A DNA stretch of 64,000 nucleotides from Candidatus Kerfeldbacteria bacterium (GCA_016207275.1 JACQPY010000014.1:6035-70034), one strand, 5' to 3'. Shown: positions 3,875 to 61,935, counted from the stretch's first letter. The notes: a model not told the origin generated them from the letters alone. Numbers and translations: made by a program.

Positions 3875-3952
3875 CCCGTTAGAAAGTCAGTTGATGAGGC
3901 ATTCATAAATGTATTTCGATGGTGCTGTATGATTTGCGGTCTTTCTAACGGG
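3875..3952. repeat. CCCGTTAGA-family inverted-repeat element, copy 1a
   Basis: arms cccgttagaaag (3875-3886) / ctttctaacggg (3941-3952) around a 54-nt AT-rich core; left arm abuts gatB start codon. Confidence 0.8.
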
Positions 3953-3957
3953 ACCAT

Positions 3958-4033
3958 CCCGTTAGAAAGTTAACGTGTAAAACACTAAGGATATTAATAG
4001 TTGCCACCGCCGAAAGACAAGTTTTCTAACGGG
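3958..4033. repeat. CCCGTTAGA-family inverted-repeat element, copy 1b (tandem with 1a)
   Basis: arms cccgttagaaag (3958-3969) / tttctaacggg (4023-4033); 5-nt spacer 'accat' from copy 1a. Confidence 0.8.
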
Positions 4034-4133
4034 ATCCATACCCTGTCATTCTACCAGCCAATCGAGGTAACGAAAAGCGCCGCACCCATCAGTATCTTGG
4101 GCGCGGCGCATCGAGCTTCACCTCAAGCAAACA

Positions 4134-4259
4134 TCACGGCTGACGCCGAGCACATAGCGCCGCCGCCCCGATCAGCACGACCAGGCTGATCGTCAGGATG
4201 AGCAGCAGCCGGTTCATCCACGGCGGCCCGCCGCTGTCGTGGTCATGACCGGTGCTCAT
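4134..4259 (-). CDS. small membrane peptide (41 aa), hypothetical
   Basis: ATG preceded by strong SD 'GGAGGTGA' 6 nt upstream overlapping tdk stop; product 'MSTGHDHDSGGPPWMNRLLLILTISLVVLIGAAALCARRQP' has one TM helix; below 60-aa cutoff of the ORF track. Confidence 0.45.
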   Translation of the reverse strand: MSTGHDHDSGGPPWMNRLLLILTISLVVLIGAAALCARRQP

Positions 4260-4272
4260 CGAGCTCACCTCC

Positions 4273-4935
4273 TCACTTCGGCGATTCGCCCCAGTACGTC
4301 TCGCGGTCGGGAATCCCGATCAAGCCGCGCTCGAGCGCTTCGTACGAACCAGGCGTCAACTGGAACCAGTGCTCCGTGCAGAGCGGCCGATACTGGGCAT
4401 CGCCGACTTCGAAGGTCGGTTCCGTCGAGTCAAGGATGTTAATCGGCGTACTGTCCCGAAGCTTCTGGTTCAGCATCGCCGTCGGCGTCCGCGAAGCGCA
4501 TGGTTCGCAGTAGGCCTTGTGCTTGTAGACCTTGAAGCCCGGAAGGATGGCGACGGCGGCCGTCGTTGCGAACGCCCGGTTCTTCCAGGTCGTGTCAAGG
4601 CCACCGTATACGATGTGGACACCGTGCTCGACGCGCAGACGATACAGGACGGCTGCAAGGCTCGGAGGGAACATGTGTCCCTCATCGATCCCGCAGAATG
4701 TAGCCTCGCGGGCAGCCTCGTACACCTCCTCTGCCGTCGAGACGATGGTCGGCGGAAAGAGGAGCTCGATACCGCTGCGGCTCCGAACCGTCCCCAACGG
4801 ATCGCGTGTATCGCGCGACGGTTTGATGAAGACCGTTCTTCCCCCGCCCGCAAGGTGATGCTTGTTCGCAAGAAGGATCACGAGATCAGACTTTCCTCCT
4901 CGCATCGGAGCGACATTAACTTCACCAAGAGGCAT
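4273..4935 (-). CDS. tdk: thymidine kinase
   Basis: P-loop 'APMRGGKSDLVIL', 'FIKPSRDTRD' and C-terminal Cys pairs ('YCEPC', 'LCTEHW') typical of Tdk; start at MPLGEV with GGGAGG SD (track ORF extends to 4992 without RBS). Confidence 0.8.
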   Translation of the reverse strand: MPLGEVNVAPMRGGKSDLVILLANKHHLAGGGRTVFIKPSRDTRDPLGTVRSRSGIELLFPPTIVSTAEEVYEAAREATFCGIDEGHMFPPSLAAVLYRLRVEHGVHIVYGGLDTTWKNRAFATTAAVAILPGFKVYKHKAYCEPCASRTPTAMLNQKLRDSTPINILDSTEPTFEVGDAQYRPLCTEHWFQLTPGSYEALERGLIGIPDRETYWGESPK

Positions 4936-5042
4936 GACCAGTTCCTCCCTCGACATATAGCGCACTGTCAAATGGCAGGTGGATGCTCTCACCCCCCGTT
5001 AGTATCCGCTCGGAGCTTACGCCAAAGCTGGCTGGCGGTCAA

Positions 5043-5122
5043 CCCCGTTAGAGAGTTATTATATTCCGGTATGATGTCAGATCTTTTACCGAGTACTTTA
5101 TATCAGCTGCTCTCTAACGGGG
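5043..5122. repeat. CCCGTTAGA-family inverted-repeat element, copy 2
   Basis: arms ccccgttagagag / ctctctaacgggg; AT-rich core; flanked by direct repeat gtcaac; a partial arm 'ccccgttagtat' lies at 4995-5006. Confidence 0.8.
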
Positions 5123-5138
5123 TCAACCTGCTGCATAG

Positions 5139-5215
5139 CCGCATAGCGCGGGTTTTATCTCCCCTCCTGCCCGAGGAGGGAGTTGGGGGAGGAGGGAGAA
5201 ACCCGCGCTATGCGG
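5139..5215 (-). terminator. long hairpin downstream of folA (17-bp perfect inverted repeat enclosing a CCTCCCCTG...GGAGG inner hairpin)
   Basis: ccgcatagcgcgggttt (5139-5155) / aaacccgcgctatgcgg (5199-5215); sits immediately 3' of folA stop; no clear U-tract so function as terminator is inferred. Confidence 0.4.
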
Positions 5216-59820: not shown

Positions 59821-59821
59821 G

Positions 59822-60319
59822 CTACTTCATCTCCTTGAGTGCTTCGTCAATGAGCTGGCGATCAGCGACCGTATCGAGCTTCACCCGCACCATCTTTTCG
59901 GTTCCGGCGACGATCAGGTCGGCCAGGTCCTGCTTGGCCTCAGCCACGATCGCGTCCTTCATCCGTTGCGCTTCCTTGCTGGCGGCGGTAACGACCGCGG
60001 CTGCTTCGATTTTAGCCTGCTCCCGGGCGCTAGTTAAAAACGTCTCGGCGTCCTGCCGGGCGGCGGCCAGCAACTGCTGGGCCGCGGTCCGCGCTTTGGC
60101 CATTTCAACCTGTTGCTCCGCCGCAAGCTTGGCGCGCTCGGCCTCAATCTCCTTTGCCTGTGCTAAACTCTGCTCGATCGTTTTCGATCGCTTTTCCAGC
60201 GCTCGAACGATCGGACCGTAGGCATACCGCTTCAGCACCCAGAGCAAAATCAGGAAGTTGACGATTTGGGCCAGCAGCAGCTTCCAGTCAATGCCGAGTT
60301 TGGCGAACAAGTCAGACAT
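59822..60319 (-). CDS. atpF: F0F1 ATP synthase subunit b
   Basis: N-terminal TM 'LLLAQIVNFLILLWVL' then long charged helix. Confidence 0.85.
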   Translation of the reverse strand: MSDLFAKLGIDWKLLLAQIVNFLILLWVLKRYAYGPIVRALEKRSKTIEQSLAQAKEIEAERAKLAAEQQVEMAKARTAAQQLLAAARQDAETFLTSAREQAKIEAAAVVTAASKEAQRMKDAIVAEAKQDLADLIVAGTEKMVRVKLDTVADRQLIDEALKEMK

Positions 60320-60404
60320 AGGTTGCGGGTTAAAGGTTACCGGTTGTCAGTTATCAGGAGTGCTCCGAATCCTTCAACGTTCAACGTACAACCGTTAACT
60401 ATCC

Positions 60405-60632
60405 CTAGACGAACTTAATAATCAGCGCGATCACCAGCGCGTAGATGGCGATGGCTTCGGTAAAACCCATGGCGATCAGCATCGACACTTGGACTTTGCC
60501 CGCCGCCTCCGGGTTTCGACCAATCGCTTCCATCGCCTTCGAGGCGAGGATACCGATGCCCAGGCCCGGACCTAACCCGCCAATGCCAATGGCCAGGGCC
60601 GCGGCAAACAACCTTGCAGCTTCTTCGTTCAT
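60405..60632 (-). CDS. atpE: F0F1 ATP synthase subunit c
   Basis: 75-aa hairpin with '[19 protein letters not shown]' loop and conserved acidic residue (E) in helix 2. Confidence 0.9.
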
Positions 60633-60681
60633 ATCATCATCCTTTCCTTACTTCGTAATTCATGAATCAAAATCGTGTGGA

Positions 60682-61446
60682 CTAATGCGCTTCTTCCGTG
60701 GTCGCCACTTTCAAGAACACTAAGGTCAGAATGGCAAAGATGAACGCTTGAATCAGGCCGACGAAAATTTCCAAAAACATAAACGGCAGCGGGATCACGA
60801 CCGGCACCAGGAACGCGATGACCACCAGCAGCACTTCGCCGGCAAAGACATTGCCGAACAACCGAAAGGAAAATGAGATAAACTTTGCTAACTCTGAAAT
60901 AAGCTCAATCAGGCCGACGAACGTAAAAATTGGATTTTTAAAATTGAAAAATCGCTTGGCATACTTGGCGGCCGAGATAGCGATGATGCCGAAAATTTGA
61001 GTCGCAATGACCGAGATGATGGCCAAGGCCAAGGTCACGTTCAAGTCGGCGTTGGTCGAGCGGAACAACGGGGTGACGACCTGGTGACCGTTGGCCGTCA
61101 CCGCCAAACTAATCGGACCGATCCCCGGCAGCAAGCCCAGCCAGTTCGACACTAAAATGAAAATGAAAAACGTGAAGACCAGCGGGAAAAACCGCAGGCT
61201 CTGTTTCCGGCCGCCGGTAACGGTATCCATCATTGCCAACGCCCCGTCAATCAACACTTCGGTCACGTTCTGCAACCCCCGCGGCGTCCCCGATCCAGTC
61301 GGGGACCTCATCCGGCGCGAGAGCAGTACCGCGGCCACGATCAGCACGACCGTGCTAACCAGGGACATAAGCAACGTATTGGTTATGGGAAACGACCCAA
61401 GGTGTCCCAGTGTTTCGGCGATCAGTGAAATGTGAACTTCGTTCAT
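60682..61446 (-). CDS. atpB: F0F1 ATP synthase subunit a
   Basis: 5-6 TM; 'SFSFRLFGNVFAGEVLL' conserved Arg region. Confidence 0.9.
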   Translation of the reverse strand: MNEVHISLIAETLGHLGSFPITNTLLMSLVSTVVLIVAAVLLSRRMRSPTGSGTPRGLQNVTEVLIDGALAMMDTVTGGRKQSLRFFPLVFTFFIFILVSNWLGLLPGIGPISLAVTANGHQVVTPLFRSTNADLNVTLALAIISVIATQIFGIIAISAAKYAKRFFNFKNPIFTFVGLIELISELAKFISFSFRLFGNVFAGEVLLVVIAFLVPVVIPLPFMFLEIFVGLIQAFIFAILTLVFLKVATTEEAH

Positions 61447-61451
61447 GTCGG

Positions 61452-61796
61452 CTACTGTTTCGACTGCTTATTGTCCTTAGTGATGAGCTGGCTCAAACGG
61501 GTAACCACCAATATTGATGAAATGATAATGGCCACCACGGCGCCGACCAGGAACAACCATGGACTGGTATCAAGTTTTTGATCGAGGTACCGTCCGCCGA
61601 CGCCCAGCACCACCAGCGGTACCACCACCATGATTCCGAAATCCCAGGCAAAGCCGATGGCCTGCCAGACCATGCCGCGCCCCGTTGCCGCGGCGCTTGG
61701 TTCGGGGTTTTTTGCCTGCCCGCCCGTTATTTCACCATTCGTTTTTTTTGATATTTCTGTCATTTTGGCGCCTACAGAATACTCGAAATCAGCCAC
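61452..61796 (-). CDS. ATP synthase operon protein AtpZ/AtpI-like
   Basis: two TM helices 'GMVWQAIGFAWDFGIMVVVPLVVLGVGGRYLDQ'; first gene of atp operon; GTG start. Confidence 0.6.
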   Translation of the reverse strand: MADFEYSVGAKMTEISKKTNGEITGGQAKNPEPSAAATGRGMVWQAIGFAWDFGIMVVVPLVVLGVGGRYLDQKLDTSPWLFLVGAVVAIIISSILVVTRLSQLITKDNKQSKQ

Positions 61797-61833
61797 CGGC
61801 GCAAGGGTGGCAAAAAGAAATGGCTAAGGTTAG

Positions 61834-61935
61834 CCCCGTTAGAGCTGGCAAGGATGAGAAGTATCGAAATAGGCATGTGCTTGGCTTCTATGCTGGGTTT
61901 TCCGTAGAGTAATATCTTTCCCAGCTCTAACGGGG
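61834..61935. repeat. CCCGTTAGA-family inverted-repeat element, copy 6
   Basis: arms ccccgttagagctgg / ccagctctaacgggg; 72-nt AT-rich core; flanked by gttagc direct repeat. Confidence 0.8.

Follow-up and report, generated by a model that had tools for sequence, protein, structure and literature searches.

Short inverted-repeat elements at gene starts in Candidatus Kerfeldbacteria: a probable family of non-autonomous DNA transposons with matching copies in other bacterial phyla

Elements of the window and their anatomy

What are the short inverted repeats that lie between the genes of Candidatus Kerfeldbacteria? We analysed a 64,000-nucleotide stretch of one such genome (GCA_016207275.1, JACQPY010000014.1:6035-70034), which we call the window; positions without a label refer to the whole window, and labels of the form L013 denote loci or contigs from other genomes. 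An earlier note on this stretch had pointed to seven or more copies of an inverted-repeat element sharing a 9-bp core, and the count stands: the 9-mer CCCGTTAGA has 14 exact matches on the two window strands, where 0.32 are expected and where 14 was reached in none of 100 shuffles. These matches make up seven inverted pairs at six sites (Table 1), all of them intergenic when checked against the window genes; the copy at dcd carries a single arm mismatch, TCCGTTAGA. Housekeeping genes surround the elements, namely gatB, dcd, rplA, pheS/pheT, the genes for thymidine kinase (TK) and dihydrofolate reductase (DHFR), a gene for a DsbD-like membrane protein and the ATP synthase operon. The GatB encoded in the window matches a protein of a Candidatus Kerfeldbacteria metagenome-assembled genome without a difference, and an exact look-up of its Dcd returned no record.

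At four of the six sites an element adjoins a start codon to the base (gatB 3874, dcd 8622, pheT 27570 and the DsbD-like gene 39820), and two sites also adjoin the stop of an upstream open reading frame (ORF), at 27650 and 39659. The pheT element is an insertion into an ATGA stop/start overlap; the ORF between pheS and pheT (27650-28207), whose TGA lies within the left target copy, has no Pfam match. The left copy of the compound element begins 2 nt past the TGA of the ORF at 39009-39659, and the element adjoins the ATG of the DsbD-like gene (39820-40695). At the remaining two sites, the TK-upstream element has the terminal pair C5043/G5122 and TCAA at both 5039-5042 and 5123-5126, and the ATP-synthase-upstream element has the terminal pair C61834/G61935 and TTAG at both 61830-61833 and 61936-61939. 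A relaxed scan of the window that tolerated three mismatches or fewer in each pair yielded no further copies, only one solitary half-site, which is possibly the remnant of an element. The DHFR and TK genes have between them, at 5133-5223, a long hairpin rich in G+C (gcatagcgcgggttt...aaacccgcgctatgc), which encloses a purine/pyrimidine-rich palindrome; the hairpin gives nothing above noise in Rfam and is probably a terminator.

Table 1. Coordinates of the elements, of the relay ORFs that cross them and of associated features
Feature	Position	Strand	Remarks
gatB	2360-3874	-	start at 3874, directly beside element 1a
Element 1a	3875-3952	-	78 bp; adjoins gatB ATG; terminal T/A pair at 3874 and 3953
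Relay ORF via 1a	3871-3957	-	28 codons; TGA overlaps gatB ATG (ATGA)
Element 1b	3958-4033	-	76 bp; in tandem with 1a, ACCAT between them
Relay ORF via 1b	3962-4039	-	25 codons; duplicated ATG to TAA within the right arm
Solitary arm-like half-site	4995-5003	+	CCCGTTAGT; relaxed scan
TK-upstream element	5044-5121	-	78 bp; inside the TTGAC (-35-like) box of the thymidine kinase gene
dcd element	8623-8700	-	78 bp; between rplA and dcd; adjoins dcd ATG at 8622
Relay ORF via dcd element	8619-8705	-	28 codons; TGA overlaps dcd ATG
pheT element	27571-27648	-	78 bp; upstream ORF TGA (27650-27652) on one side, pheT ATG (27570) on the other
Relay ORF via pheT element	27567-27653	-	28 codons; TGA overlaps pheT ATG
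Compound element, left copy	39662-39735	+	truncated; left arm intact, right arm only TCTAAT
Compound element, right part	39736-39819	+	complete copy 39736-39810 plus extra right arm ACTAACGGG at 39811-39819
Relay ORF via compound element	39656-39823	+	55 codons; TGA overlaps ATG of the DsbD-like gene
ATP-synthase-upstream element	61835-61934	-	100 bp; upstream of the ATP synthase operon
RNHCP/miaA-site family	L121:15814-15882; L137:9739-9805; L122:13281-13347; L135:11207-11283; L138:11283-11360		second element family, other Kerfeldbacteria

The 147 copies pooled from many genomes give the consensus unit [TNNA] Y-CCCGTTAGA-NNN ... NNN-TCTAACGGG-R [TNNA], in which the triplet of the right arm is complementary to that of the left. 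The terminal inverted repeats are 13 bp long and consist of Y, the invariant CCCGTTAGA and three free but matching bases. The core between the arms is not conserved and spans 0 to about 110 bp, giving elements of 24-130 bp in all; the smallest are minimal hairpins of 24-37 bp, among them one 24-bp perfect palindrome with a TTTA duplication (L104). In the window the cores have a G+C content of 31-51%, as against 57.2% for the window as a whole, so that the AT-richness described in the earlier note holds while its figure of 60% for the background does not. The cores of the 3875 and 8623 copies, which it had called homologous, are indeed 74% identical (z = 8) and form the best core pair in the window.

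The arms combine a fixed sequence with a fixed pairing. Watson-Crick pairing at arm positions 10, 11 and 12 occurs in 91%, 95% and 76% of 148 copies (expected 44%, 45% and 32%), through 27 different arm triplets, and it ends sharply after position 12, position 13 being at background (34% versus 28%); the covariation first seen among the window copies therefore persists in the larger alignment. The 9-mer itself is held by sequence and not by pairing alone, since just three compensated variants occur in 1.1 Mb. Outside the 9-mer, the flanking base is Y on the left in 143 of 144 copies and R on the right in 143 of 144, and the -1/+1 pair is C-G in 84, T-A in 54 and T-G in 6 of 147 copies (complementary in 138/147). 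Where pairing and a direct repeat call for different bases, the observed base agrees with pairing (31 versus 4 at +1, 41 versus 3 at -1), and the outer Y and R therefore belong to the element.

Beyond these bases stands a 4-bp direct repeat (-5..-2 / +2..+5), exact in 83 of 147 copies where shuffled partners give 9.8. It is mostly TNNA (TGAA, TTTA, TTCA, TAAA, TCCA); duplications of 3 bp (TGA alone at the dcd and pheT sites) and, in some copies, of 5 bp (CGACG) also occur, and models with a 6-bp or 2-bp duplication were ruled out by register analysis and by the empty sites described below. The flanking duplications of the earlier note are thus real, and their apparent length of 5-6 bp is 4 bp plus a base borne by the element.

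Could the elements be moved as single-stranded hairpins by a domesticated HUH transposase (an IS200-like enzyme or a RAYT, a transposase associated with REPs), in the manner of repetitive extragenic palindromes (REPs) and their paired form, REPINs? Complementarity is required at free positions on either side of a fixed core, and minimal hairpins of 24-37 bp exist, of which the 24-bp palindrome is too short to loop as duplex DNA; both points speak for such a mechanism. We nevertheless consider it very improbable, because REP and IS200/IS605 insertion leaves no target duplication and the elements here have one, because the arms are not themselves GTAG-led palindromes, and because no neighbour gene recurs near 119 listed copies from other genomes. 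REPs resemble the elements as intergenic hairpins within operons that keep their arms complementary; they differ in lacking a target duplication and in having a GTAG motif and a RAYT gene, and none of these features is found here. The earlier label of MITE/REP-like (MITE standing for miniature inverted-repeat transposable element) is retained in its first half; the second finds no support, since the elements have target duplications and a RAYT-type gene was not seen.

Filled and empty orthologous sites

The earlier note had suggested a search for empty sites in related genomes, and such sites exist. We compared seven further contigs from Kerfeldbacteria. Their GatB proteins share 57-68% identity with that of the window, and the gene order from SecE-NusG-L11 through L1-Dcd-Tmk-ThyA-(DHFR)-TK-GatB is kept in them. 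The dcd start is filled in the window, L121, L135 and L137 and empty in L122 (gatcATGATTCTT) and L138 (ggggatATGATCCTG). Similarly, the gatB start is filled in the window, by two tandem copies, and in L121 and L137, and it is empty in L122, L123, L135 and L138, which hold a single ATGGA/ATGAA. The TK promoter reads GTTGAC[el]GTTGAC in the window, where [el] is the element, and has a single TTGAC in L121. Outside Kerfeldbacteria, a nested element at L013:5741-5863 forms an in-frame 43-codon insertion in the fpg gene (formamidopyrimidine-DNA glycosylase) of an Uhrbacteria genome; the Fpg of L098 is closely similar outside the insertion and uninterrupted at the corresponding point, near 3511 (tatTTTACcaatgg). 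At these four sites, where both states are found, the empty orthologue carries a single target copy. The filled and empty sites show insertion with target duplication.

The copies that persist do so mainly at gene boundaries. Once the element is precisely removed, 10 of 130 sites are spanned by an ORF, as against 367 of 650 random positions, and the elements are thus strongly excluded from coding sequence. The same count disposes of an intron-like or translational-bypass reading, in which removal should restore an ORF and does so in just 10/130. In one case, L022:1727-1819, excising the element together with 6 nt gives an ORF of about 720 codons, and this copy may be a gene-disrupting insertion. 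Tandem and nested copies occur.

We propose that the elements are a family of non-autonomous, MITE-like DNA transposons, and we regard this reading as probable. It rests on their terminal inverted repeats, the target duplication, the small size without a transposase gene, the multiple copies (seven in 64 kb) and the presence or absence of the element at orthologous sites. A transposase acting in trans would recognise the 9-bp core and move the elements. The matching free positions of the arms would reflect either a step in which the ends are paired as a hairpin or selection on the stem in the transcript.

Start codons and relay frames

Exact abutment on an ORF start is found in 56 of 145 copies, with a frequency of 47% in the candidate phyla radiation (CPR) and 21% elsewhere, and 13 of the start-abutting copies sit in an ATGA overlap whose left copy holds the TGA that ends the upstream ORF. 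The right-hand duplicate begins with TG, and the terminal R of the element therefore completes the start codon: T/A termini give an ATG start and C/G termini a GVG-type GTG start. In five cases, all with C/G termini, the left copy is still ATG and the gene now starts with GTG.

A second regularity concerns reading frames that cross the elements, which we call relay ORFs. These open at the duplicated ATG, traverse the element and end either at a TAA in TCTAACGGG, with 4 nt left to the gene, or at a TGA that overlaps the start codon of the gene. All five window elements at start codons have one, a result with a joint chance of 1.3e-3 for shuffled cores, and the two window elements away from start codons have no such frame. 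In the Kerfeldbacteria relatives, 9 of 11 relay frames end at -4 or +4 from the element end, and their peptides show no conservation. When all genomes are taken together, the relay frame is open in 17 of 37 cores (shuffled cores, 6.8 +/- 2.2, with a maximum of 15 in 1000), as compared with 5-11 of 37 in the other five frames. The relay frames, of 22-55 codons, are the only ORFs that the elements contain, and the simplest reading of their openness would be selection for translation through the element.

RNA folding, likewise suggested by the earlier note, gives a terminal stem of 13-15 bp in all seven window elements (-22.6 to -38 kcal/mol), with z-scores of -2.4 to -5.8 in six and -1.75 in the 39736 copy; the base of this stem includes the A of the start codon. 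Insertion into A|TGNA at a start codon or an ATGA overlap keeps the old ATG, and the upstream TGA where there is one, on the left, and the new right-hand start codon is composed of the element's last base (A or G) and the duplicated TG. For expression we propose the following sequence of events. The 13-bp stem in the mRNA would bury this new start codon. Ribosomes starting at the old ATG would translate the relay ORF of 22-55 codons and thereby melt the stem, terminate at the right-arm TAA 4 nt before the gene or at the TGA overlapping its ATG, and re-initiate on the gene. Relay ORFs across start-codon elements would imply translational coupling. Two papers (PMC6728339, PMC10666635) report that termination-reinitiation coupling is tight for gene pairs that overlap or lie very close together and that it depends on such overlap or very short spacing; the relay ORFs, which end in ATGA or 4 nt before the ATG, resemble the pairs described there and differ in that the upstream ORF comes from a mobile element and not from a gene.

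The start signal of the old ATG is a native Shine-Dalgarno sequence, the ATGA of the upstream gene or, at gatB, an apparent leaderless promoter. In the window (4040-4060), L121, L123, L135 and L138, the gatB ATG follows a TAGAAT-type -10 box at a distance of about 8 nt and lacks a Shine-Dalgarno sequence, which suggests that the gatB mRNA of these Kerfeldbacteria may be leaderless. In L136, at about 2080-2290, a second gatB-like start (ATGGATCTTGAACCGGTCATAGGCCTGGAAATTCAC) precedes the called start and is followed by about 100 nt of unrelated sequence; it may reflect an insertion of another kind or an error in assembly. Within the window copies we found no consensus promoter; other CPR copies contain a GGG-N-TAtAAT-like motif oriented with the gene. 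We also note two cases in which an element or minimal hairpin lies on a TTGAC(A) -35-like box, the EF-Tu promoter at L112:3950-3985 and the TK site of the window (5039-5126); in both, the -35-like box is regenerated beside its -10.

Element orientation tracks the downstream gene. An interior GGG is on the sense strand in 37 of 51 copies and CCC in 12 of 51, and GGGAT stands on the sense strand seven times versus none. Likewise, the window copies carry a TAAC subterminal repeat at the end nearer the gene, among them the flipped dsbD copy on the plus strand. This bias could arise from asymmetry of the target, from selection for an open relay frame or from function.

Distribution, alternatives and significance

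Further copies are numerous in other genomes. A scan of a genome collection with one genome per species for CCCGTTAGA-N55-85-TCTAACGGG returned at least 119 loci. Among the matches listed, and by record title, 63 are from Patescibacteria/CPR of many classes, 17 from Desulfobacterota or 'delta', 15 from Planctomycetota including anammox genera, 7 from Omnitrophota, 3 from Nitrospirota, 3 from records labelled Gammaproteobacteria and 11 from other or unclassified organisms. Cores are related within a genome and unrelated between genomes. This spread across phyla, the position on start codons and the relay ORFs had all been missed by the earlier note.

Viral sequences contributed 11 matching loci, three of them on one Mu-like phage contig (IMGVR_UViG_3300038429_000794; L124/L134/L131). 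This contig carries five copies, including minimal hairpins of 27-28 bp, and encodes a Mu transposase and AAA_22 and capsid domains. We rejected viruses as general vectors, since there are just 11 viral loci and the Mu transposase of this phage is implausible as the mobiliser. A group of related viral contigs (L125-L127, L129, L130) shares one conserved 91-bp hairpin with the same 9-mers, flanked by A and T instead of Y and R and lacking a duplication; it may be a different use of the 9-mer motif. Two identical 92-bp elements in inverted orientation flank a 2.7-kb segment encoding a 686-aa secreted protein at L016:2167-5033, and each lies within a longer inverted repeat that recurs on other contigs of the same metagenome-assembled genome. 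In a Saccharibacteria metagenome-assembled genome (L049:4972-5126), the 9-mers bracket a complete tRNA-Thr(CGT) whose acceptor stem prolongs the stem of the element, and a 3' tRNA fragment with its own TCTAACGGG follows; as a general feature, tRNA cargo is rejected at 1 of 174 copies.

Which enzyme might move the elements? Pfam scans of about 50 window proteins found no transposase, and the window likewise has no integrase or HUH protein. We clustered 1825 ORFs from the neighbourhoods of the 119 listed copies all against all, and no recurrent family emerged apart from housekeeping ones such as EF-Tu, NusG, L1/L11, glycosyltransferases and Fpg; the largest cluster, itself of housekeeping genes, covers 6 of 119 loci. 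At spacings of 200-6000 bp, no two arms that agree in triplet, termini and duplication were found in about 1.1 Mb of loci, and no autonomous partner appeared in the window, in those loci or in the neighbourhoods of the elements. We take the IS1380/piggyBac group, with ends starting CC(C) and a 4-bp T..A duplication, to resemble the elements. In piggyBac, TTAA flanks CCCTAGAAAG. The elements differ from this group in the extra Y/R base between the duplication and CCC and in the freedom of the central two duplication bases, and searches of the window, of the neighbourhoods of listed copies and of the relatives gave no transposase of this group.

Site-specific recombination offers another route, by which the elements would be attC-like sites or integrated mini-circles and the recombined site would be the junction TCTAACGGG-RTNNAY-CCCGTTAGA. 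Tandem copies do make a palindromic site of this kind, with 9-bp arms around a 5-6-bp spacer, and GTTAGA and TCTAAC presumably resemble the integron core and inverse core. This origin seems to us the least credible of all and close to negligible: the order of the arms is the reverse of that in attC (5'-RYYYAAC...GTTRRRY-3'), with GTTAG on the 5' side and CTAAC on the 3' side; the 4-bp targets are many and unrelated; no integrase lies nearby, in the window or in the neighbourhoods of listed copies; and the neighbours are housekeeping genes and not the cassette ORFs and integrase of an integron.

Several observations weigh against the transposon reading. The window copies are old, and because their best core pair is just 74% identical, recent activity in the window genome is not evident. 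The length of the duplication varies (3, 4 or 5 bp). Neither a transposase nor any longer element bounded by these ends turned up in the window, near the 119 listed copies or in the relatives. Translation of the relay ORFs, and the coupling that it would bring, are inferred from sequence alone. In addition, the four diverged genomes filled at the dcd site share 23-24 of 24 arm bases, at the same time as their cores are 36-61% identical and their dcd genes agree at 47-62% of 4-fold synonymous sites, both near saturation; selfish mobility explains this pattern no better than does selection on the arms where they stand. In a single-gene tree the filled genomes are not a clade, and the dcd and gatB sites would be explained either by an ancient insertion with precise losses and conservation of the arms in place or by repeated insertion at a hot spot.

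The dcd arms also argue for a hairpin selected by the host, as RNA or DNA and possibly of transposon origin. A conserved host protein, for instance a translational regulator or a double-strand RNase, would bind or cleave its conserved 13-bp stem, and the hairpin would be kept for control of the expression or processing of the downstream gene. A second element family has been retained in five genomes at one site near the RNHCP and miaA genes (Table 1), the relay ORFs stay open as their peptides drift, orientation follows the downstream gene, the plus-strand dsbD copy is flipped relative to the minus-strand window copies, and the copy that encloses a whole tRNA-Thr does so like a processing stem. 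We consider this explanation unlikely as a replacement for the transposon reading. The target duplications and empty sites show that the elements arrived by insertion, and repeated hot-spot insertion could give the appearance of conservation at a fixed site. Since the cores of different genomes are unrelated, no RNA is conserved beyond the stem, and no Rfam family matches: there is no match at the gathering score in the whole window and no relevant match at E <= 1 over 3800-8800. Moreover, many non-CPR copies lie away from start codons, and copies are also found inside a gene and in a phage. As a separate observation, the RNHCP/miaA-site family has the arm triplet GGC and a CGACG duplication, and its arms are conserved and its core diverged.

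In a more ambitious form of the transposon reading, the elements would be more than parasites that the host tolerates, and these features would be combined in a mobile 'start-codon cassette' that crosses phyla, with arms selected at fixed sites, with obligatory, stem-gated translation of the gene coupled to an upstream ORF, and with an undescribed transposase or hairpin-dependent mechanism as the mover. As a whole we regard this as a speculative and rather improbable proposal.

The elements work like the MITEs of other bacteria. Correia elements of Neisseria, for example, are short, non-coding, multi-copy MITEs with terminal inverted repeats and a TA duplication, which are intergenic, co-transcribed and able to fold into hairpins. 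The elements described here are likewise short, multi-copy, intergenic and hairpin-folding, with terminal inverted repeats and short target duplications. They differ from Correia elements in their ends, in a duplication that is 4-bp TNNA and not TA, in having only 9 bp conserved, with cores unrelated between hosts and no parent insertion sequence known, and in spanning many phyla, where Correia elements occupy one genus, and sitting on start codons with relay ORFs. Rickettsia palindromic elements are 100-150 bp long, conserved in sequence, restricted to Rickettsia and mostly intragenic; they share with the fpg insertion of L013 the property of palindromic mobile repeats translated in-frame inside genes, whereas the elements here are mostly intergenic. 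Literature searches by sequence and by topic found no paper describing the element. What sets it apart is the invariant 9-bp core with free yet matching positions to either side and, furthermore, the cores unrelated between hosts, the spread over many phyla and the rebuilding of start codons with relay ORFs.

Finally, a single family shared by Patescibacteria, Omnitrophota, Planctomycetota, Desulfobacterota and Nitrospirota would mark gene flow among uncultured lineages. The elements also affect gene calling, through ATG-to-GTG switches of the start codon, spurious small ORFs and in-frame insertions. The sharply bounded 13-bp stem with its fixed 9-bp core is a putative binding site of a protein that could be fished out. 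Furthermore, the elements show how an insertion on the start codon of an essential gene, or on an ATGA junction, can survive: the last base of the element rebuilds the start, and the relay ORF would restore coupling.

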